A model generated the notes under the pieces. The model ran no database searches and was not told the DNA's origin. It was given only the letters and a program-made list of their open reading frames with translations. From Candidatus Eremiobacteria bacterium (lineage in GTDB: Bacteria > Vulcanimicrobiota > Vulcanimicrobiia > Vulcanimicrobiales > Vulcanimicrobiaceae), in NCBI GenBank assembly GCA_963737065.1, contig CAVTRC010000002.1, positions 32,001 to 96,000 of the forward strand: a stretch of DNA of 64,000 nt, written 5' to 3'. The number at the start of each line of letters is the position of its first letter. The stretch's first letter is position 1. A program made the translations under genes and the position numbers. Below, piece by piece: positions 4,698 to 23,693 of this stretch.

Positions 4698-5485
4698 TTC
4701 AATGTGAAATCAGGCGGAATCATCCCCACCGCATGATACCCGCCATCGACAAAGTGCACGTCCGCCGTAATCGCCGACGAAAGGTCCGACGCAAGATACA
4801 CGGCGGTGTTGCCGACGTCTTCAGCGGTGACGTTGCGCCGAAGCGGCGCGACTTGCGGTACGACGTCGAGCATTTTCGTCGCGCCCGAAACCTGGCGCAT
4901 GCTGGCGGTTTTGATCGGTCCTGCCGAGATCGCGTTGACGCGAATGCCACGATTTCCGAGGTCGTACGCTAGATAGCGCATCGACGACTCGAGCGCTGCC
5001 TTCGCAATTCCCATCAAGTTGTAGTTCGGCACGATGGCTGTTGCCCCAAGATACGTCAGCGCCATGATCGAGCCGTTGTCGTTGATGTCGTCGCGAAGCG
5101 TCGATACGAGCGCGATCAGCGAATACGCCGAAACATCGAGGCAAAGCGAAAAACCGCCGCGCGTCGTGTCGTACACGGTCCCACGCAAGTCATTTTTGTC
5201 GGCAAAGGCGATCGAGTGCACGAGCCCGTCGATCTTCCCGAACGACGATACGAGCTCGTTGCGCATCGCTTGCAGCGACTCGTCTTTAGAGACGTCACAT
5301 TCGATGACCGTGCCGCCGCCGAGTTCCGTTGCGAGTCGCTCGACTTCATCCTTGACGCGTTCGCCCTGGTACGTGAACGCCAGCGTCGCGCCGTGCTCGT
5401 GCATTTTGTGCGCGATGCCCGTCGAGATCGACCAGCGATTGGCAACGCCCGTAATGAGGACGCGCTTTCCTTCAAGCAGCTTCAC
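4694..5485 (-). CDS. fabI: Enoyl-ACP reductase
   Basis: LITGVANRWSI, VHSIAFA, YNLMGIAKAALE, VNAISAGPIKT; likely GTG start at 5485. Confidence 0.95.
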   Translation of the reverse strand: MKLLEGKRVLITGVANRWSISTGIAHKMHEHGATLAFTYQGERVKDEVERLATELGGGTVIECDVSKDESLQAMRNELVSSFGKIDGLVHSIAFADKNDLRGTVYDTTRGGFSLCLDVSAYSLIALVSTLRDDINDNGSIMALTYLGATAIVPNYNLMGIAKAALESSMRYLAYDLGNRGIRVNAISAGPIKTASMRQVSGATKMLDVVPQVAPLRRNVTAEDVGNTAVYLASDLSSAITADVHFVDGGYHAVGMIPPDFTLK

Positions 5486-5657
5486 GTACGCTAGATACCA
5501 TCGCAACCGACGGCGACCTTCTCGAAGCAGCAGCGCAGACACGCGCGATGGATCGCGACGCAGATGGTGGCGTGCGAACAACACCGAGCGCGCTCAATGC
5601 GCGTCTTTCACCATGAACCGACCGGTCGGCAAGACGTTTGCCGAACGCTCGCGTCTC

Positions 5658-7211
5658 CTAGAGCGGAATGTTGCCGTGCTTGCGCTTTGGTCGCTCGACG
5701 CGCTTGTTTTCCAGCATCTCGAGCGCGGTCGCAATCGCTCCCCGCGTCCGATGCGCCTCGATGACGTCATCGACGTAGCCGCGCTGTGCCGCGATGTACG
5801 GATTCGCAAAGCGTTCGGTGTACTCGTCGATCAGTTCTTTCGTCTTTGCGTCTTTGTCCGCGGCCGCGGCGATTTCGCGGCGATCGATCACCTTGACCGC
5901 GCCCTCCGCGCCCATCACGGCAATTTCGGCCGTTGGCCATGCCAGGTTGATGTCGGCGCGAATGTGCTTCGACGCCATAACGTCATATGCACCGCCGTAC
6001 GCTTTGCGAGTGATCACCGTAATTTTCGGTACGGTCGCCTCCGCGAAGGCATAGAGCAGTTTCGCGCCGTGTAAAATGATGCCGCCGTACTCTTGATCGG
6101 TGCCCGGCAAGAACCCCGGAACGTCAACGAACGTGATCAACGGGATGTTGAACGCGTCGCAAAAACGTACGAAGCGCGCCGCTTTGATCGACGACTTGAT
6201 GTCAAGCACGCCGGCGAGCACGTTCGGCTGGTTCGCGACGACGCCGATGCTGCGTCCCGCGATGCGCCCGAAGCCGCAGATGATGTTTTGCGCGTAGTGC
6301 GGTTGAATCTCGAAGAAGTCACCGTAGTCAAGCACGCCTTCGATCACCTCGTGCATGTCGTACGGCTTGTTGGGCGAGTCGGGGACGAGATCGTTGAGTT
6401 CGGGCGTTTCACGTTGCGGATCATCGTCGGTCGTGAAGCGCGGTGCGTCGTCTAAATTGTTCTGCGGCATATACGAGAGCAGCAGCTTCGTCGATTCGAC
6501 GAGATCGTCTTCATCGCTCGCGACGACGTGCGCGACGCCGCTTCTCGTCGCGTGCGTCATCGCGCCACCGAGTTGCTCGAACGTCACGTCTTCACCGGTC
6601 ACCGTTTTGATGATTTCCGGACCGGTAATGAACATCTGCGAGATATGCTCGGTCATCAGAACGAAGTCCGTGATCGCGGGCGAGTACACGGCTCCGCCGG
6701 CGCACGGACCGGCGATAAGGCTCAGTTGCGGAATAACGCCGCTCGCCTGAACGTTGCGCCAAAATATCTCGGCATAACCGCCGAGCGATACGACACCCTC
6801 CTGAATGCGTGCGCCGCCGGAGTCGTTGACGCCGATCATGGGCGAACCGGTCCGCACGGCAAGGTCCATGACCTTGCAAATCTTCTCTGCGAACGCTTCG
6901 CCGAGAGAACCGCCCAGCACCGTGAAGTCTTGAGAGAACACGAAGATCTGACGGCCGTCGATCGTTGCGCGTCCCGTAATCACGCCGTCGCCGAGGAACT
7001 CTTTGTCGTCTAAGCCGAACGCATTTGTCCGGTGCACGACGAACTGATCGAGCTCGGTGAACGACCCATCATCGACCAGCGCTTCGATCCGTTCGCGCGC
7101 GGTGCGTTTACCGCGCGCATGCTGACGTTCGATGGCGTCAGTGCCGGCGGGCGCTTGCGCGAGCGCGCGCTTGCGCGCGAGTTCTTCATATTTTTCCCCG
7201 TGCGATCTCAC
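5658..7211 (-). CDS. pccB: Acyl-CoA (propionyl-CoA) carboxylase beta subunit, carboxyltransferase
   Basis: [58 protein letters not shown]. Confidence 0.93.
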
Positions 7212-16493: not shown

Positions 16494-17110
16494 GTGATTC
16501 TCCGTTCTTCCAGAGAGCACTGAAGCAGAAACTCTAGGCCTTCCAAGTGGCGGCGCGCGTCGTCCATCGTCGCACCCCACGCATATAACCCATGTCCCGC
16601 GAGCAGGTATCCAGGCACGCGTGGAACGGACTCGAGCGCTGCTTCGATGCGTGAAGCAAGCGCAACTGTATCTTGGTCGTTTGCAAAGATCGGTAGCCGT
16701 AGCGAGCTTTCGTGCGTCGTGATCCCTTCCAGCGATTTATGCATTTCGAACCCACGGAGCGCAACCGCGCCGTTCGCCGCATCGACGCGTGACAGTACCG
16801 TCGCCGCGACGGAATGGATGTGCGCGATGGCGCCCGTGTTCGGATCCGCGGCGTAGCGCGCAACGTGGAGCGGTGTTTCCGCGGAAACGCCGGGCGGTAA
16901 TGGTGCGTTGAGGTCGACCACGATGAGATCGTCAGGGCCGATGTTTCCTTTGTCGATACCCGAGCGCGTGATCGCGATCCGCGACATAGCGATGCGGCGC
17001 GAGAAGTTGCCGCTCGTGGCGGGAACCCAGCCGCGCGAAGCGGCGAAACGTCCAATCGCGGCGATATCGGATGCGACGGACTCCGGAACCGTCGGAAGGT
17101 GCATCGTCAT
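16490..17110 (-). CDS. mtnB: Methylthioribulose-1-phosphate dehydratase
   Basis: GWVPATSGNFS, SAETPLH, HIHS, GHGLYAWG. Confidence 0.92.
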   Translation of the reverse strand: MTMHLPTVPESVASDIAAIGRFAASRGWVPATSGNFSRRIAMSRIAITRSGIDKGNIGPDDLIVVDLNAPLPPGVSAETPLHVARYAADPNTGAIAHIHSVAATVLSRVDAANGAVALRGFEMHKSLEGITTHESSLRLPIFANDQDTVALASRIEAALESVPRVPGYLLAGHGLYAWGATMDDARRHLEGLEFLLQCSLEERRIT

Positions 17111-17133
17111 CCGCAACACCATACCATAGCCCG

Positions 17134-18762
17134 ATGCTCAACGTCCTGGTGGCCGTGTTGCTCGCACAAGGTACAGCTTCGCCCTCGCCGCCGCTCAGTG
17201 CGACCCCAACGCCGAATCCGTTGGCATCGCCTTCAGCATCACCGCTTCCGGCGGCAGGCCTCCAAGCGTCGCCCGCATCGCTCGCGATTCATCCCGGCGG
17301 AACGGCGACGCTGCGTATCATCAACGCGGCGGGCGCACTGACTGCGACCGCGGGTCCGCTCGTCGCCGTCGCCGTGAATCAGGCGGAGAAAACGCTATCG
17401 GTCAGCGCAGCGGGACAACTCGGACGTGACACGATTCACGTCACCGATCAAACGGGTGCGGCAGTCGACATTCCCGTGCTCGTTGCGCAAGACGCCGGCA
17501 GCGTGCCGAGCGCGGTGACGTTGAAAGTGACCGGTTCAGCGATTGATCCGGCGTGGCTCTCGACGCAAATATCCGCCGCCGTCGCGCGCAATGCGACCGT
17601 GCAGCCCGGTGCAACGCTCGCCGCACCGTCGCCGCCGATTGCACCGCCCCAGGCCGGCGCAACGACGAGCGTGCCGGTTGCCGTACAGATCAACGGAAAC
17701 GGCCAATACGTCGATGTTGCAACGACGACGAATGTCAACGTGCAAAACGTCAGCGTTGAACCGTTCGCTCCGCCGACACTCATGTACGACGACGATCCGG
17801 AGCATTTGACCGGCGACGGTGTCCTGTATCGCGGAACGGTGGACGCGAGTGCACCGTCGCGTCTGTACTATTACCATGACAATACGTTGGACACGCGGCG
17901 TCTCGTCGTCGCTCTTTCGTCCGCGGCGAACCATCCGTCCACGGTTCAGACGATCGATTCTACCGCGGGCCCGAACATCGACGTGATGAGCGTCGGCCAC
18001 GCCGTCAGCCGCGATTTCCTTTTGATGAAGCCGCGCAATGCCGGCGTCATCTACGACCTCGATCCGTCAACGGCACTGGTTCTCCACGATGTTCCGATGA
18101 GCAGCCGGCAACTCGTGGCCGGAACGATCGGCATCAATGTGCTTTCCGGCGGTCCGGTTACCGTGACCGTGCTTGCGGTTTCGCCCGGTGCCGATCCACG
18201 GACGATGCTCGCGGGGCCGTTGCTTCCGCGCGATGGGCATAATCGCGGCGGCGTCTTTGAGCTGACGAACTTCGGCACGAATTCGCTCGCGTACACCGTC
18301 GGCGGGAACGACACGTCGGTCGTGTACGGCGATCGTGATCCTACGCCACAAAATATCGACCCCTCGAGTCCCGGGCATGACTATGGCGACTACGGCGTCA
18401 TGCACACATTCTTGTTCTCGCTCGACAACCCGACGAGCGCGCCGGCCAACGTCTATCTCTATGAGCGGCCGATCGGCGGCGTCGTGCGTTCGAGCTTTCT
18501 GGTCGACGGCAGGCTCATAGAAATGGGGTGCGTGCGGGTCAATACGGCGCGGTATCAAATTGCAGCGTTCGCACTCGAGCCCGACGCGCGTTATCAGCTC
18601 AACGTGCAAACGATGACGGACGGTGGATCGAACTACCCGCTCGAGATCGGCCTGACGACAACGCCTCCCGAGCCGGCCGTGCCCGCAATCTCCGCCGCCG
18701 CCGGATGCTTCCCGAAAGCGCAGGCGGCACCATCTGCGTCATCGGCGGCAACGCGTTTTTAA
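17134..18762 (+). CDS. Secreted hypothetical protein with Pro/Ser/Thr-rich N-terminus
   Basis: Short hydrophobic leader, ASPSPP linker, beta-rich body; DDDPE..G.LY and GDYGV motifs loosely recall DUF3370-type proteins (unverified). Confidence 0.75.
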   Translation: MLNVLVAVLLAQGTASPSPPLSATPTPNPLASPSASPLPAAGLQASPASLAIHPGGTATLRIINAAGALTATAGPLVAVAVNQAEKTLSVSAAGQLGRDTIHVTDQTGAAVDIPVLVAQDAGSVPSAVTLKVTGSAIDPAWLSTQISAAVARNATVQPGATLAAPSPPIAPPQAGATTSVPVAVQINGNGQYVDVATTTNVNVQNVSVEPFAPPTLMYDDDPEHLTGDGVLYRGTVDASAPSRLYYYHDNTLDTRRLVVALSSAANHPSTVQTIDSTAGPNIDVMSVGHAVSRDFLLMKPRNAGVIYDLDPSTALVLHDVPMSSRQLVAGTIGINVLSGGPVTVTVLAVSPGADPRTMLAGPLLPRDGHNRGGVFELTNFGTNSLAYTVGGNDTSVVYGDRDPTPQNIDPSSPGHDYGDYGVMHTFLFSLDNPTSAPANVYLYERPIGGVVRSSFLVDGRLIEMGCVRVNTARYQIAAFALEPDARYQLNVQTMTDGGSNYPLEIGLTTTPPEPAVPAISAAAGCFPKAQAAPSASSAATRF

Positions 18763-18834
18763 AACTTTTTGACGGGTGCGCCGGTTTTTTGGCATAGCGG
18801 TCGCGACGCGAATGCGGTAGGCTGGTTCAAAGCC

Positions 18835-19818
18835 GTGGAACGTACGACCGAACCGAAGATCGTTTTGCTCGTCCGCCTGCTCAACGCTATTGATGAGGGG
18901 CGTCACTCCTTCGAGAGCCTGAAAGACCGGATCGCGGAAGGTGGGCGTCGTCCAAGCACGCGCAGCTTACGCCGCTATCTGGCGGTCCTCTCTGAAGCGG
19001 GCTTTCCGTGGTACTTCGACCGTACGACGAATACGTACCGATTCGCGGGCGGCTATAGTCTTAAGCGGCTCGATCTCTCGGGCGGCGAACTGTTCGGCCT
19101 CGTCGCACTCCGCTCGTTTGGCGCCTCGATCGGCGGCGCCATTGGCTCCTCGATCAACGACATCACCGACAAGCTCTTGGGCTCGACCAGTAACGGAGCA
19201 CGCGCACGCGCCGAAGCGCCTACCCCGCTCGCCTTCCGCCTTTCCGAGATCCGACTCGACGAGAACGGCGAAGCGGCGTTGCGCGTTTTTTCCGCGGCCG
19301 AGCGCGCGTCGCGCAGCGTCGAGTTCGTCTATCAAGACAAAGAACGAAAGCGCAGTACGCGTGTTGCCGATCCGTACGGATTCATCGTGAGCACGGGGCG
19401 CATATATTGCGTTGCATACGACCATGCGCGTCGGGACAAACGCGTCTTCGCCGTAGACAATGTAAGCCAACCGCGCATGCTCGCGCGGACTTTCGTAAAG
19501 CCGGAAGACTTTGACGTTGAAGCGTACGCGGCTGCGTCGATCAGCGGCGTGATGCACGGCGACGACACAACGGCCGTGCGCGTATATTTCGCGCCTCGCG
19601 TTGCGAAAGCGGCGATTGCGGCGCGGGTCGTCGCGGAACGGCAAATAACACGCAACGATGATGGGTCGGCGCATATCGAATACCGCGTCGCGGACGTCGA
19701 CGAACTCGTACGCTGGGTTCTCGGCTGGGGATCGCAAGCCGAAATCGTCGAACCCGCTCCCGTCCGCGATCGCATCTCCGTATTAGCCCACGAAATCACC
19801 GCAAAATACGGCACATAA
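18835..19818 (+). CDS. HTH-WYL-WCX transcriptional regulator
   Basis: N-terminal wHTH (STRSLRRYLAVL), RVADPYG..IYCVAYDHARRDKRVFAVD, WVLGWGSQAEIVEP; start GTG 18835 or TTG 18769. Confidence 0.9.
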   Translation: MERTTEPKIVLLVRLLNAIDEGRHSFESLKDRIAEGGRRPSTRSLRRYLAVLSEAGFPWYFDRTTNTYRFAGGYSLKRLDLSGGELFGLVALRSFGASIGGAIGSSINDITDKLLGSTSNGARARAEAPTPLAFRLSEIRLDENGEAALRVFSAAERASRSVEFVYQDKERKRSTRVADPYGFIVSTGRIYCVAYDHARRDKRVFAVDNVSQPRMLARTFVKPEDFDVEAYAAASISGVMHGDDTTAVRVYFAPRVAKAAIAARVVAERQITRNDDGSAHIEYRVADVDELVRWVLGWGSQAEIVEPAPVRDRISVLAHEITAKYGT

Positions 19819-19852
19819 CCAACGTACGAGGTCGCATAGGTTTTTGCGGGTG

Positions 19853-19888
19853 CAAAAACAAAATCAGCGGGTGCGAGCCCCGCTGATT
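19853..19888 (-). terminator. Intrinsic terminator, minus strand
   Basis: 10-bp perfect stem (19862-71/19879-88), running into TTTTGTTTTT on the minus strand. Confidence 0.8.
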
Positions 19889-20056
19889 CAGACGTATTCG
19901 CTCACCAAACTCGCCTGTCTGACTCTCGGGTGGGAGAGCCTTACTGACTCGAGTGGCGGTTCGATCGGGACCGCTCAAGGCTGCCAGCGCAGCCATTACG
20001 AGCGGATAACTCGATCGCGACCGATACGCGCGTCGCGCTCCGGCGCGAGCCGAAGT
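19853..20056 (-). ncRNA. Candidate structured small RNA (~200 nt), family unassigned
   Basis: Bracketed by a sigma70-like promoter and an intrinsic terminator; at least six stem-loops; no contained ORF. Confidence 0.6.
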
Positions 20057-20062
20057 GAACGC

Positions 20063-20091
20063 ATCGTAGCACCGGACGTGAAGCGCTTCAA
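20063..20091 (-). promoter_or_regulatory. Sigma70-type promoter of the candidate ncRNA
   Basis: TTGAAG - 17 bp - TACGAT, with extended -10 TG. Confidence 0.65.
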
Positions 20092-20115
20092 GACGTTCGT
20101 GCGTTCGCACACACC

Positions 20116-20166
20116 GTATCCACAAGAAACTGGTTGTTATTCACGTTTCGCGCGGCGTTATGCACA
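20116..20166 (+). promoter_or_regulatory. Three phased DnaA-box-like direct repeats
   Basis: GTATCCACA (20116), TTATTCACG (20137), TTATGCACA (20158); 21-bp period; 0-1 mismatch to TTATNCACA. Confidence 0.6.
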
Positions 20167-20186
20167 ACGCGGCGTGACGCACCGGT

Positions 20187-22046
20187 TCAACCTCCGCTCA
20201 GATCGACGATCATTTCCGTCGCGAGCGCGACGAAGAATCCGCACGCGAGCGCTGTCGTTACGGTGCTCGTGAGGCCGATGCGTTTGAGCACGCTCCACAT
20301 TTCGCCGATGACGAACACGAGCGCGCCGGCCGCGATCGTCAAGAAGAAAACGGAAAGCAACGGTGAGCTGAAAAAGTAACCGACGACGGTTCCAAGGAAC
20401 GTCGGGCCGCCGGCAACCAACCCCGCGAGTGCGATCTGTCCCCACGTCGGGACCATCCGTCCGGCCATTGGTGCGGCGATGCCGAAACCTTCGGTCGTAT
20501 TGTGCAATGCGAATCCGATGATTAGTCCGATTGCCAGTGCCGTAGCACCCGTCGCGGCCGATGCGCCGATTGCGAGCCCTTCGCCGAAATTGTGCGCGCC
20601 GATACCGAGCGCGATAACGGCCGAGAGCGCGTAGGGATGTTCGCCGGCTTCGTGCACGTGATGCTTCATGAACTGCATCGACGCACTGCCCAGACCAACG
20701 AGCCCGAGTAGAAACCCGCCGATGTACGCAACCACGAGCCACGCCGGAAACGCTCCTTGCCCCGCGTGCCAGATCGACATCGCTTGCGTTAACGGGATGG
20801 TTGCGTTCTGAGCGATTTCAACGACGAGAAAGACCAGAATTCCGATTGCGAGCGCGTTGAGGATCGCGATGACGTTCGGCGAAAGCCGGCGCGCGCGCGC
20901 GATGGGCAATCCAAGGAAGATTGTGAGTCCCGCGATTGCGCCGAGCAGCAGCGTCTTTTGCATCGAAAGCGGCGCGGGAGCGCTCGACGTCTTCATCGGC
21001 ATCATCGGCGCGCTCATCGAGGCGAACGTGTCCGGTGTTCCATGGTAGTGAAGCGCCGTGATCAGTCCCGCAGGCAACGAATCCGCGCCCTCTACGTGAT
21101 CCGCGACGTGGCAATGAACGAGCCAGGTGCCCGGTTTTGCATTTGCGGTCACGATCACGTCGACGCGTTGACCCGGCCCTACTTCGACCGTGTCTTCTTC
21201 GTCATCGCCGGAAACGGGACGGGCGTCGCGCTCGATGACATGCTGGTAGTGGCCGTGCGTGTGCATCGTGTGAAACTCTTCACCCGACATGCTGATCCAC
21301 CGTATGCGGATCCGTTGCCCTTTCCGAACGTCCAGTTGTTTCGTGTCCGGATACTCTTTGCCGTTGAGCGTCCAATGATTCTCGATGCCGCTCTGAATCA
21401 TCCACGAGGAAATCATCTCGACGTAGTCGTGCGCGACGTTTCGCTCCACTGGAAGCGGATGGCTCGGCACTACAACGATCGCGCCGTACAAACCCGACTC
21501 GAGCATCGCTTCCGTGCTGTGCGTGTGATAGATGAACGTGCCGGGTTGATTCGCAACGAACTCGTACCGAAACGTGCCGCCCGGCTGAACCATTGGTTGT
21601 GAGATTCCGGGAACGCCGTCCATGTCGACGCCGGTCCCGTGAATGCCATGCAAGTGAATCGTGTCGGGCATGTCACCGTCGTTCTGATAGTCGATAACGA
21701 CGGTGTCGCCTTGGTGCACTTGCAGAACCGGGCCGGGCACGACGCCGTTGTACGTCCGCGCCATCACGACCAGTCCGCTGCGAAGCGTCCACGGCGCTTG
21801 CCGTTCGACGATGTGGAAAACCTTCGTTCGGCCATGAACCTCGGGGACCGCCTGATAGCTGCCGTCATCGCGCGGGACGCTTCGAGATTCGCCCGGTGCG
21901 GGGGTGGCGACGGGGATCGCGCCCCGCAGCGGCTGTAAGCCTTGCGCCAGGCTCTGCGGTGTGCTGATGTGTTCGTCGGCGTCCGCGCGCGCGGCAATGG
22001 GAGAAAGGAAAAGCGCCAGAACCAGCGCGGACAAGAGCAGTCGCAT
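20187..22046 (-). CDS. Fusion: signal peptide + two-domain multicopper oxidase + ZIP-family metal transporter
   Basis: TIHLHG, YHTH, HTMHTHG, HCHVADH copper motifs; ZIP TM4/TM5 motifs HNFGEG and HNTTEG; one uninterrupted 619-aa ORF. Confidence 0.9.
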   Translation of the reverse strand: MRLLLSALVLALFLSPIAARADADEHISTPQSLAQGLQPLRGAIPVATPAPGESRSVPRDDGSYQAVPEVHGRTKVFHIVERQAPWTLRSGLVVMARTYNGVVPGPVLQVHQGDTVVIDYQNDGDMPDTIHLHGIHGTGVDMDGVPGISQPMVQPGGTFRYEFVANQPGTFIYHTHSTEAMLESGLYGAIVVVPSHPLPVERNVAHDYVEMISSWMIQSGIENHWTLNGKEYPDTKQLDVRKGQRIRIRWISMSGEEFHTMHTHGHYQHVIERDARPVSGDDEEDTVEVGPGQRVDVIVTANAKPGTWLVHCHVADHVEGADSLPAGLITALHYHGTPDTFASMSAPMMPMKTSSAPAPLSMQKTLLLGAIAGLTIFLGLPIARARRLSPNVIAILNALAIGILVFLVVEIAQNATIPLTQAMSIWHAGQGAFPAWLVVAYIGGFLLGLVGLGSASMQFMKHHVHEAGEHPYALSAVIALGIGAHNFGEGLAIGASAATGATALAIGLIIGFALHNTTEGFGIAAPMAGRMVPTWGQIALAGLVAGGPTFLGTVVGYFFSSPLLSVFFLTIAAGALVFVIGEMWSVLKRIGLTSTVTTALACGFFVALATEMIVDLSGG

Positions 22047-22051
22047 TGCGT

Positions 22052-22071
22052 AATTTAGTTTTGCCTAAATT
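22052..22071. promoter_or_regulatory. DtxR/MntR(SirR)-type operator candidate
   Basis: Perfect inverted repeat AATTTAG-N6-CTAAATT, 5 nt upstream of the MCO-ZIP ATG; same geometry as the SirR box TTAG-N6-CTAA. Confidence 0.7.
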
Positions 22072-22139
22072 GCCTTGTAGTCCCGCCAACTCCGCATATC
22101 GAGGGCAGGCGCGCCCGTGATCGGCCGGAAGTTTACCGC

Positions 22140-23693
22140 ATGACGTCCACGCTCAGGCTGCCCGGCACGGTCGAACTCGACGGGCGCCATCTCACGCTCG
22201 AAGCGATTGAAGCGGTTGCAAACGGCGCTCCCGTTACGATTTCTCAGGAAGCGCGCGAACGCGTCGTTCGCGCGCGCGCCTTCGTCGAGGAGCGGTTTGC
22301 GGAGGGTGAAGCAATCTACGGGGTAACCACCGGCTTCGGACGCCTCGCGAACGTGCCGGTCGACCCGAAAGACGCCGCGCAGTTGCAACTGAACCTCGTG
22401 CGCAGTCACGCCTCCGGCACGGGACCGCCGCTCGACAAGCGTCTCGTCCGCGCAGCAGGTGTCTTGCGCGTCAATTCACTCGCTGCCGGCCACTCGGGCG
22501 TCAAGCTCGAAACACTCGAATTGCTGGCGGGACTTCTCAATCGAGCCGTCACGCCCGTCGTTCCGTGCCAAGGGTCCGTTGGTGCAAGCGGCGATCTTGC
22601 GCCGCTCGCGCACATGTCGCTCACGCTGATCGGTGAGGGCGAAGCGTTCTATCAAAACGAACGTTTGCCGAGCGACGTCGCGCTCGCACGCGCTGGATTG
22701 GAACCGGTGACGCTCGGACCGAAAGAGGGGCTCGCGCTCATCAACGGCACGCAAATGATGACCGGCATCGCGGCGCTCGGGATTCTACGTGCGGAGCGCC
22801 TTGCCGCCGCGGCGGACGTGATCGGAGCGATGTCGCTCGAAGCGTTTCTCGGAACCGATCGCGTCTTCGACCGTCGCATCAACGACCTTCGCCCGCATCC
22901 CGGTCAGACGCGCGTGGCGGCGAACCTGCGCGCGCTGCTCGAGCGTTCGGAAATCATGCTCTCGCATCGCGAGTGCGGACGCGTGCAAGACCCGTACTCT
23001 TTCCGCTGCATTCCCGTCGTGCATGGAGCGGTGCGCGATTCGATCGCACATGTACGCAGCGTTGCGGAGATCGAAGCAAATTCCGTGACCGATAATCCGC
23101 TCGTCTTTCCTGACGACGGCGAGTTCCTCTCCGGCGGGAATTTCCACGGAGAACCGATCGCGCTCGCGATCGATTTCCTGAAATTTTCGATCAGCGAACT
23201 CGCATCCATTGCGGAGCGTCGTTTGTATTTGCTGCTCAATGCCGAGGACCGGGGCTTGCCGCTATTCTTGACCGGCCGTTCGGGATTGCAATCGGGATTG
23301 ATGATCGTCCAGTACGCCGCCGCAGCGGTGGTGAACGACAACAAAGGCTTGGCGTGGCCTTCGAGCGTCGATTCGATCCCGACCTCCGCCGGTCAAGAGG
23401 ACCACGTCAGCATGGGCATGACGTCGGCGAACAATCTTATGCGCGTGCTCGACAATGTCGAAGGCGCGCTCGCATGCGAACTTCTCGGTGCGCTGACCGC
23501 GACCGATTTCCGCCGCCCATTGAAATCCGGCGCCGGCACGCAAGCCGCGTATGACGTGGCCCGGACTTCCATTGCGCCGTGGACGGAAGACCGCGCCCCG
23601 GCGCCCGATATCGAAGCGGCACGCGAACTCATTCGCACGGGCGCACTAACGCAAGCAGCGACGCGCGCGACAGGTGCAAGGCTCGATCGGTAA
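22140..23693 (+). CDS. hutH: Histidine ammonia-lyase
   Basis: YGVTTGFG, GSVGASGDLAPLAH (ASG MIO), QDPYSFRC, GGNFHG, QEDHVSMG. Confidence 0.95.
   Translation: MTSTLRLPGTVELDGRHLTLEAIEAVANGAPVTISQEARERVVRARAFVEERFAEGEAIYGVTTGFGRLANVPVDPKDAAQLQLNLVRSHASGTGPPLDKRLVRAAGVLRVNSLAAGHSGVKLETLELLAGLLNRAVTPVVPCQGSVGASGDLAPLAHMSLTLIGEGEAFYQNERLPSDVALARAGLEPVTLGPKEGLALINGTQMMTGIAALGILRAERLAAAADVIGAMSLEAFLGTDRVFDRRINDLRPHPGQTRVAANLRALLERSEIMLSHRECGRVQDPYSFRCIPVVHGAVRDSIAHVRSVAEIEANSVTDNPLVFPDDGEFLSGGNFHGEPIALAIDFLKFSISELASIAERRLYLLLNAEDRGLPLFLTGRSGLQSGLMIVQYAAAAVVNDNKGLAWPSSVDSIPTSAGQEDHVSMGMTSANNLMRVLDNVEGALACELLGALTATDFRRPLKSGAGTQAAYDVARTSIAPWTEDRAPAPDIEAARELIRTGALTQAATRATGARLDR

Follow-up and report, generated by a model that had tools for sequence, protein, structure and literature searches.

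What does a bacterium gain by joining an oxidase to a metal transporter in a single polypeptide, and which metal would such a protein carry? The question is raised by one gene in a stretch of 64,000 nucleotides from a Candidatus Eremiobacteria bacterium (assembly GCA_963737065.1, contig CAVTRC010000002.1, positions 32,001 to 96,000; henceforth the window). An original prediction, made from the letters alone, had described its product as a multicopper oxidase (MCO) fused to a ZIP transporter, and had proposed that the oxidase sets the redox state of manganese, iron or copper at the mouth of the transporter or guards it against Cu(I). We find that the fusion is real, and that its gene carries a putative operator for a metal sensor of the DtxR/IdeR family. 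Our tentative reading is that the protein takes up a metal, most likely iron, with the help of its oxidase and under repression by that metal, much as the Fet3p/Ftr1p system of yeast does but with a ZIP as permease.

The fusion protein and its two halves

The existence of the fusion was confirmed, and it is not an artefact of assembly. Of 8000 proteins scored in a word-indexed search, 954 reached E <= 1e-3, and the best 120 homologues (599–642 aa, 64–100% identity, 94–100% coverage) come from Eremiobacterota bins under the names 'multicopper oxidase domain-containing protein' or 'ZIP family zinc transporter'. An orthologue that is nearly full-length and without internal stops is found in 26 of 41 related genomes, and three more of these relatives (G031, G033, G037) have an open reading frame (ORF) cut at contig ends or split in two frames. 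In an even sample of 201 genomes of the phylum (Eremiobacterota by database names), 99 match at E <= 1e-90, in most cases over the full length and without interruption. By family, the matches are distributed over f1 (82/113), f2 (1/3) and f3 (15/15), all three in one class, with none in f4–f21 (0/68). Unpublished genomes are included in these counts (G014 and G036 in the tally of 41 relatives, G036 also in the f3 adjacency tally given below, G036 and G225 in the phylum tally); nothing else in our account depends on them. The copper and ZIP ligands are all kept down to 47% identity. The original prediction had staked the fusion on homologues of the same architecture, and these do exist in families f1, f2 and f3, in 99 of the 201 phylum genomes.

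In two genomes (G037:C1:2064460-2066305 and G220:C2:1764290-1766123) two adjacent frames take the place of one in the oxidase part, the breaks lying near query residues 240 and 280; this may reflect a frameshift, an error of sequencing or a gene that is truly split. A protein labelled 'uncultured proteobacterium' (locus L022) was considered as a second fusion lineage and rejected, being 74% identical to an f3 protein.

The ORF and signal peptide are as originally described, and so are the motifs quoted from the translation, namely HLH (131–133), HTH (174–176), HTMHTH (259–264) and HCHVADH (311–317) in the oxidase, where Cys312 is the sole cysteine and cysteine is thus limited to domain 2, together with SMSAPMMPM, HNFGEG, HNTTEG and KHHVHEAGEH further on. 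Both oxidase domains score well above their curated Pfam cut-offs (Cu-oxidase_3 at residues 94–195 with 103.8 bits, E 8e-30, cut-off 21; Cu-oxidase_2 at 223–319 with 95.8 bits, E 2e-27, cut-off 20.4), which by sequence places the N-terminal half among the two-domain MCOs. An AlphaFold model from 61 sequences (mean residue confidence, pLDDT, 90.5; pTM 0.75) orders the chain as a helix (2–14), a disordered stretch, two beta-sandwich domains, a helix (342–353) and eight long helices from residue 362. Lys and Arg residues are located in loops predicted to be cytoplasmic when the translation is read against the model helices. Given the signal peptide and these positive loops inside, the oxidase is predicted to be periplasmic, which fits its attachment to a ZIP whose N-terminus faces outward; the N-terminus of the fusion protein has no twin-arginine motif in translation. 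The product would then be a periplasmic oxidase placed N-terminal to a ZIP in one inner-membrane protein.

Features of the fusion locus (positions in the window, residues in the fusion protein)
Feature	Position	Strand	Basis
DtxR/IdeR-like operator palindrome (putative), AATTTAGTTTTGCCTAAATT, core 22055-22068	22052..22071	.	pattern and weight-matrix scans
MCO-ZIP fusion gene, 619 codons plus stop, ATG start	20187..22046	-	ORF list
Sec-type signal peptide (predicted), residues 1-21 (MRLLLSALVLALFLSPIAARA, then DADEH)	21984..22046	-	translation; cleavage site inferred by eye
Cupredoxin domain 1, Cu-oxidase_3, residues 94-195; H131, H133, H174, H176; no Cys	21462..21767	-	Pfam E 8e-30
Cupredoxin domain 2, residues 220-335; H259xxH262xH264, H311-C312-H313, H317, D316, axial L328	21042..21389	-	Pfam and alignments
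Met-rich linker helix, residues 341-352, FASMSAPMMPMK	20991..21026	-	alignment and model helix 342-353
ZIP permease, residues 362-619, eight helices	20190..20963	-	NCBIfam ZupT, BbZIP profile match, model helices
Transmembrane helix 4 (TM4) H485-N486-x-x-E489; TM5 H515-N516-x-x-E519	within ZIP 20190..20963		invariant motif columns
Terminator-like hairpin with T tract, about 300 nt 3' of the stop codon	19861..19889	-	consensus scan

In an alignment of 15 fusions (47–100% identity) residues H131, H133, H174, H176, H259, H262, H264, H311, C312, H313 and H317 are invariant. All four copper motifs of the family (HxH, HxH, HxxHxH, HCHxxxH) can therefore be recognised, with the eight predicted His ligands of the trinuclear cluster and the His/Cys/His set of the type 1 (T1) copper. 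Since domain 1 has HTH and domain 2 HCH, a single T1 copper is expected, in domain 2. The nearest solved structures by sequence, the two-domain MCOs 3g5w of Nitrosomonas europaea (E 6e-49) and 2zwn from a metagenome (E 4e-48), are also the best structure matches (Foldseek, TM-score to target 0.78–0.80) and share with the fusion a long loop after the last His. Their arrangement is however the opposite one, with the T1 cysteine (HCH) in domain 1 and HDH in domain 2, and the fusion alone carries a ZIP. The two T1 arrangements go, presumably, under the names 'type B' and 'type C'. The comparison with two-domain laccases of the SLAC type, made in the original prediction, did not hold, as the closest relatives by sequence are these type-C enzymes (3g5w, 2zwn; T1 Cys in domain 1). 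Two-domain MCOs are homotrimers in which the trinuclear cluster is built between subunits. The chains of 3g5w and 2zwn come in multiples of three, which is suggestive at most for a trimer, and by analogy the oxidase of the fusion may well be trimeric too.

Two residues at the T1 site set the ZIP-fused oxidases apart. One is the axial position, where Leu had been suspected in place of the expected Met, and the homologue alignment bears this out, with G327-L328 invariant across the 15 fusions. In 18 unfused relatives the same column has G-M in 11, G-L in six and a gap in one. The loop from His317 to L328 is 10 residues long compared to the canonical 4; M324 had been a candidate for the axial ligand and was dropped after the alignment placed L328 in the axial column. 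A non-coordinating axial residue or Leu raises the T1 potential (PMC3738974). The other is the residue before the T1 His, D316, which is Asp in 15/15 fusions and in both fusions of reverse order (see below) and in 0/18 unfused relatives. Outside the two-domain MCOs, the best match of the T1 segment is domain 6 of ceruloplasmin (E 1e-9), and D316-H317 is aligned onto the D-H pair of its HCHVTDH. In human ceruloplasmin these are D1025, a ligand of Fe(II), and H1026, a ligand of the T1 copper (PMC3738974). The ZIP-fused oxidases thus appear to carry a signature of their own, Asp before the T1 His plus an axial Leu, and the two together are sequence hints of a metallo-oxidase, perhaps a ferroxidase.

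The permease half is a divergent ZIP. Its Pfam Zip match (residues 470–578) scores 24.6 bits, below the curated 35.1; since close relatives pass the cut-off (P0153 with 50.2, P0270 with 49.3 and P0217 with 40.6 bits), we take it for a member of a divergent subfamily and not for a non-member. NCBIfam ZupT aligns residues 362–607 to positions 5–258 of its 266 (E 2.5e-10, far below the equivalog cut-off). A subfamily profile (A3) of 20 members and 261 positions matches the solved BbZIP chains 5tsa, 8ght, 8j1m and 7z6m at E 3e-13 to 6e-13 over positions 7–253, indicating homology to a solved ZIP across all eight helices. HNFGEG and HNTTEG are aligned with HNLPEG and QDVPEG of BbZIP, the metal-site segments of helices 4 and 5, and are invariant both in the fusion alignment and in the ZIP alignment; the Glu of the following helix is not conserved. 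In the linker, M344 and M348 are invariant among the 15 fusions. The ZIP domain and the Met-rich linker therefore stand as first described, and the His-rich loop KHHVHEAGEH, although present, is specific to the genus and not conserved in the 15 fusions.

A putative DtxR/IdeR operator and its regulator

The gene has what looks like a metal-responsive switch at its start. The palindrome at 22052–22071 lies 5 nt upstream of the fusion ATG and 68 nt upstream of a divergent histidine ammonia-lyase gene. Its core is the sole TTAG-N6-CTAA match in the window (0.11 expected) and agrees at 12 of 14 positions with the first 14 nt of a DtxR/IdeR consensus quoted in PMC7762939. An AT-rich palindrome by the start codon was found upstream of the fusion in 8/8 of the first orthologous loci. 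When a weight matrix built from nine sites was scanned over the 3.08-Mb own genome, this operator site had the top score by far, 31.3 bits, the runner-up being a site of 19.6 bits upstream of an EPSP-synthase gene. Weaker still were a 16.8-bit site that has no start codon within 250 nt, two sites of 14.3 bits, each at a transposase copy, and one of 14.1 bits ahead of a VIT1 gene. None of the NRAMP genes of the own genome has an operator-like site.

Seventeen loci outside the matrix-building set, scored at a threshold of 12 bits, provided an independent check. One site was found upstream of the dtxR-fusion gene pair in 8/8 f3 loci, and just upstream of the fusion in six of nine further f1/f2 loci, one of the nine lacking upstream DNA. 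No second site of at least 12 bits was found in any of the 17.

The own genome has one DtxR-family gene, on the other contig (contig 1, 2447581–2448219). Its product combines Fe_dep_repress, Fe_dep_repr_C and FeoA domains and is closest, among solved structures, to IdeR (E 8e-33); all 41 relatives have an orthologue. In 11/11 f3 genomes (10/10 without the unpublished G036) the gene directly preceding the fusion, in the same orientation, is this DtxR-family gene. Both parts of a DtxR/IdeR regulon, a putative operator and a regulator gene, are thus recognisable in the genome by sequence. Because the site falls on the initiation region and repression is the main mode of action of DtxR proteins (PMC7762939), the fusion gene is probably repressed by a sensor of this family. 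A gene repressed by a metal sensor would be expressed under metal scarcity, as expected for a metal-uptake protein.

The metal-binding residues of such sensors offer a clue to the metal itself. The iron-specific DtxR site consists of Met10, Cys102, Glu105 and His106, the manganese-specific MntR site of Asp8, Glu99, Glu102 and His103, and MntR of P. gingivalis has an Asp/Cys hybrid site and binds Mn(II) (PMC4805248). Met/Cys/Glu/His occupy the iron-specific DtxR positions in the f3 regulators (8/8 read) and in the regulator at L022. Among regulators adjoining stand-alone ZIPs of other phyla, Met or Cys occurs at those positions in 0/20.

Iron-related gene content of the own genome was surveyed as well. 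The fusion is its only ZIP, next to two Fur-family genes and four to five NRAMP genes. FTR1 (PF03239) gave zero matches in this genome, which is 95% complete, with control genomes matched, and for FeoB there were only weak GTPase-domain matches (best 44 bits), none of them convincing.

The surroundings of the gene are otherwise unremarkable. Its neighbours in the window encode histidine ammonia-lyase, a WYL regulator, a GH47 enzyme, a class II aldolase and a secreted protein of no assigned family, and no copper-related gene is among them. The terminator-like hairpin is weak on its own, the consensus scan having found 3 sites against 2.5 expected, and the stretch of 300 nt from stop codon to hairpin varies among four relatives of the genus, so that there is no conserved 3' element. 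An Rfam search of 19500–22400 gave zero matches and a sigma-70 promoter scan 0 sites.

Several further observations on the genome may be recorded here. The 14.1-bit site (C1:532563) is 32 nt before the VIT1-family gene (532615–533448), a family of iron/manganese transporters, and is a possible second regulon member. The NRAMP genes are four intact ones and a fifth split into two frames in the 3.1-Mb genome. Identical 20-mers stand beside transposase genes (with helix-turn-helix and rve domains) at C1:2238 and C2:576841, near one end of each contig, and it may be that copies of a single insertion sequence connect the two contigs. In the window, the reading frame at 17071–18762 (+), upstream of the WYL/WCX regulator gene (18769–19818), encodes 563 aa that are rich in Ala, Pro and Ser at the N-terminus and match nothing in Pfam.

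Relatives of the ZIP and comparable systems

A profile scan over one genome per species gave an estimated 4000 stretches related to the ZIP half, and 80 loci were examined. They belong to Chloroflexota, Actinomycetota, Dormibacterota, haloarchaea, ammonia-oxidising archaea and others, and hold 78 stand-alone ZIPs, the one fusion at L022 (f3 clade) and one ZIP-cytochrome c fusion (L049). A DtxR-family gene is directly adjacent in 24 of the 80 (23 at E <= 1e-12), and a site of at least 14 bits lies upstream of the ZIP in 14/80 loci, compared to 3/80 elsewhere in these loci of about 10 kb. Within 5 kb of a stand-alone ZIP a clear MCO was found in 0/78 loci, weak Cu-oxidase matches appearing in L047 only, and none of 69 downstream ORFs of stand-alone ZIPs is a cupredoxin, MCO or cytochrome c. 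With 78 of 80 ZIPs standing alone and without redox neighbours, the lineage in general does not need a redox partner.

Fusions to redox modules have nevertheless arisen in more than one form, as an architecture census of cluster representatives at 50% identity made clear. The order MCO then ZIP is limited to two clusters, P0121 and P0122. The reverse order, a ZIP followed by a two-domain MCO, is found in P0125 and P0130, and since both orders exist there must have been at least two fusion events. Other members join the ZIP to a blue-copper domain with a Cys/His/Met site (P0192, P0194), to cytochrome c (P0198, with CSTCH, and L049 mentioned above) or to a cupredoxin-like domain without ligands (P0217, P0236, probably P0267 and P0270). 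The ZIP-domain tree is a quick one with its thorough search unfinished, and in this preliminary form the C-terminal (reverse-order) fusions group apart from the two same-order clades. The coupling of redox chemistry to transport, the central idea of the original prediction, gains comparative support from these independent redox fusions of one ZIP lineage and from the metal-repressor operator; its variant of guarding against Cu(I) does not, as nothing speaks for it beyond the Met-rich linker and the regulation is of DtxR/IdeR (iron/manganese) type and not that of a copper sensor.

Some proteins of this census deserve separate mention. Two 'stand-alone' ZIPs on long contigs, P0354 (285 aa) and P0360 (268 aa), are nested in the f3 fusion clade of the quick tree, and their sequences open with a linker-like stretch; their starts may have been mis-called, or they may truly be split forms. 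P0236 and P0270 (593 aa each) consist of the ZIP, a ligand-free cupredoxin-like beta domain and then a domain of about 250 aa without Pfam match, which we read as helical. P0206 (659 aa, metagenome), of the same broad group, joins a DUF4396 membrane domain to a two-domain MCO that has His, not Asp, before the T1 His, and is another membrane-tethered oxidase.

The nearest published counterpart by gene order is the pair of adjacent MCO1 and ZIP genes in ammonia-oxidising archaea (PMC7785015, PMC5817080, PMC5767755; Kerou et al. 2016 as cited there), for which copper uptake or hydroxylamine oxidation have been guessed. In N. viennensis both genes rise modestly under copper limitation (log2 0.81 for MCO1 and 1.33 for the ZIP), and the authors propose, as a proposal only, oxidation of Cu(I) to Cu(II) followed by import through the ZIP (PMC7785015). 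In seven archaeal loci we found a two-domain MCO gene directly upstream, on the same strand, of a homologue of the window's ZIP (E 1e-22 to 5e-29). The likeness to the fusion, same gene order and homologous ZIP, has clear limits: the genes are separate, the ZIP frames are longer than the ZIP match by about 140–180 aa, the MCO is 27% identical to the fusion oxidase and keeps the T1 Cys in its first domain, and in the quick, unfinished tree the archaeal ZIPs stand apart as a long-branch clade. By sequence, then, the fusion does not appear to belong to the archaeal MCO1 + ZIP lineage. No DtxR-family gene lies within 2 kb upstream of the pair in the six loci inspected for it, and in five archaeal genomes exact TTAGG-N4-CCTAA is no commoner than a control and absent near the pair.

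The longer archaeal ZIP frames (L118:1504-2715, L120:1492-2688, L121:1471-2664, L122:1048-2226, L123:1477-2685, L125:940-2229) encode 393–430 aa with the ZIP match starting at residue 143–184, and may hold an extra N-terminal domain. A cation-efflux (CDF) gene is convergent to the archaeal ZIP in five of the seven loci (L118, L120–L123). In Candidatus Nitrosotalea sp. TS, two same-frame ORFs with one stop codon between them (L047:3151-4362), upstream of a ZIP at 4995–5843, show weak matches to Cu-oxidase_3 (E 7e-6) and Cu-oxidase_2 (E 8e-11) and may represent an oxidase gene that has decayed or diverged; according to PMC5767755, Nitrosotalea lacks MCO1.

By function, the proposed analogue is in yeast. 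Fet3p/Ftr1p, like the fusion, combines a membrane-tethered MCO on the outer face with a permease and is induced by iron scarcity, as the fusion would be judging from its operator; Fet3p presumably has Leu as axial ligand too. The differences are that the permease of the fusion is a ZIP and not FTR1, that its oxidase has two domains instead of three, that all is in one polypeptide, and that transport of Fe(3+) by a ZIP is a proposal only. As the genome has no FTR1, we regard the fusion as an analogue and not a member of this type. In yeast, iron uptake depends on the oxidation and the product is channeled (PMC11817551, PMC12218971).

Two other systems share parts of the design. In C. glutamicum a DtxR-family sensor represses the ZIP importer gene mntT, its main target (Baumgart and Frunzke 2015, cited in PMC11933003), just as the fusion's operator is by far the best site of its genome; there, however, the ZIP has no oxidase and the sensor responds to manganese. 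In vertebrates, a multicopper ferroxidase (ceruloplasmin or hephaestin) is paired with an Fe(II) transporter (ferroportin), as would be the case in the fusion, and the HCHV-x-DH of the fusion aligns with ceruloplasmin domain 6, D316 falling on the Fe(II) ligand D1025. That system, in contrast to the fusion, serves efflux and not uptake, with a six-domain oxidase, a transporter of another family and separate proteins.

Our literature search, with subscription journals largely outside its coverage, found no description of an MCO-ZIP fusion protein. The original remark that none has been characterised therefore agrees with the published record as far as covered, although the archaeal gene pair is published and public databases hold hundreds of fusions under generic names. 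New here are the operator palindrome, the dtxR adjacency in f3, the other redox fusions of the ZIP lineage and the Leu/Asp signature.

Which metal, and what for

Our tentative reading can be spelled out as follows. A single sensor of the DtxR/IdeR family would bind the palindrome by the start codon and shut off transcription, and when the sensed metal is scarce the fusion protein would be made and import it. The oxidase would bind Fe(II) at the acidic site beside the T1 His (D316-H317) and oxidise it with O2. The Met-rich helix would tether the oxidase to the outward-facing N-terminus of the ZIP, so that the oxidised metal may be passed straight into the pore. The iron substrate, the ferroxidase activity and the hand-over are what we infer, and we put the whole forward as a possibility that falls short of an even chance. 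A number of results weigh against it. The ZIP metal-site motifs are identical in fused and stand-alone members, so Fe(3+) transport is not indicated by them, and to our knowledge no ZIP carries Fe(3+). A 2025 review lists ZIPs as carriers of Fe(2+) only (PMC11817551). The regulator of the window's own genome has Glu/Cys/Glu/His, an acid/Cys hybrid as in the Mn(II)-binding MntR of P. gingivalis, and the one studied precedent for a ZIP under a DtxR-family regulator, MntR/mntT of C. glutamicum, is manganese-responsive (citing passage in PMC11933003). The correlation of regulator and fusion in f3 is a single evolutionary event, these genomes being one clade, and two of the nine further f1/f2 loci have no site of at least 12 bits. 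Finally, the invariant Met pair of the linker would suit Cu(I) better than iron.

Some of these points can be turned into a manganese hypothesis, in which the ZIP imports Mn(II), as its stand-alone relatives probably do, and the oxidase acts as a gatekeeper. By clearing competing Fe(II) (or Cu(I)) from the mouth of the pore, it would keep a broad-specificity ZIP from overloading the cell with iron where the habitat is acidic and rich in Fe(II). ZIPs do import manganese in Salmonella and Streptococcus (PMC9334652), the repressor of mntT, the ZIP gene of C. glutamicum, is MntR (citing passage in PMC11933003), and the hybrid type of the own regulator binds Mn(II) in PgMntR (PMC4805248). Moreover, 24 of the 80 ZIP loci of other phyla adjoin a DtxR-family gene, their 20 aligned regulators are without Met and Cys at the discriminating positions, and fused and unfused forms have the same ZIP metal site. 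We still consider it unlikely: the regulators that actually adjoin the fusion, in f3, carry the iron-type Met/Cys site, the genome already has four to five NRAMP genes, and no precedent for such a gatekeeper is known to us. A copper system, with the oxidase turning Cu(I) into Cu(II) for import by the ZIP, or detoxifying Cu(I) with the ZIP as a mere anchor, would explain the Met-rich linker with its invariant M344 and M348. Cu(I) oxidation is, by reasoning, also the only metal oxidation that yields a divalent, ZIP-type substrate, and the modest rise of MCO1 and ZIP of N. viennensis under copper limitation (PMC7785015) points the same way. Yet the operator and the linked regulator are of DtxR/IdeR type and not those of a copper sensor, no copper-handling gene stands beside the fusion in the window or in locus L022, and the archaeal MCO is of a different type (Cys in domain 1, 27% identity) with a ZIP in a separate clade (quick, unfinished tree), which makes a copper role quite improbable in our view.

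The conflict between iron-type regulation and an M(2+)-type ZIP site would be reconciled if a laccase-like T1 site of high potential oxidised phenols or catecholates that bind Fe(III) where humic matter abounds and the released iron entered the ZIP as Fe(II). The homologues are in Eremiobacterota by database names, a group presumably linked to such habitats. The Leu axial ligand, which raises the T1 potential (PMC3738974), would also suit such an enzyme. This scenario is purely hypothetical; the Asp beside the T1 His suggests a cation and not an aromatic substrate, the cytochrome c and blue-copper fusions are unsuited to a ligand-oxidising role, and we give it a small chance. As to the simplest view, that the two halves are not coupled in function, having come together by chance through gene order or assembly, or with the ZIP serving only as a membrane anchor, it might appeal to the 78 of 80 ZIP loci that are stand-alone, with no clear MCO within 5 kb and 0/69 downstream redox ORFs. 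Against it are an uninterrupted ORF on hundreds of independent contigs, catalytic and transport ligands of both halves kept to 47% identity, independent fusions in both orders and to other redox domains, and the restriction of D316 to ZIP-fused oxidases. Together these render it hardly credible.

Behind the labels 'zinc transporter' and 'multicopper oxidase domain protein', hundreds of database entries hold a protein more specific than its name. Fungi are known to couple an oxidase to iron transport through FTR1, and vertebrates through ferroportin; ZIPs have been treated as carriers of divalent ions only. Here the oxidase and the ZIP are one chain, conserved across a class of uncultured soil bacteria and apparently wired to an iron/manganese sensor, so that, on our reading, redox chemistry at the pore mouth would be used with ZIPs too. 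A broader claim, that ZIPs can be the receiving half of oxidase-permease iron uptake, a second and independent invention of the Fet3p/Ftr1p principle within a wider class of ZIPs with periplasmic redox modules (MCO in either order, blue copper, cytochrome c), is one we regard as somewhat unlikely on present evidence. The fusion offers a covalently linked 1:1 model for the hand-over between oxidase and permease, and a hypothesis for the role of the conserved MCO1 and ZIP pair in ammonia-oxidising archaea. The permease partner of the insect (Drosophila) ferroxidase Mco4 is given as still missing (PMC12218971), and, were the iron reading true, ZIPs would become candidates for the missing partner of such animal ferroxidases.

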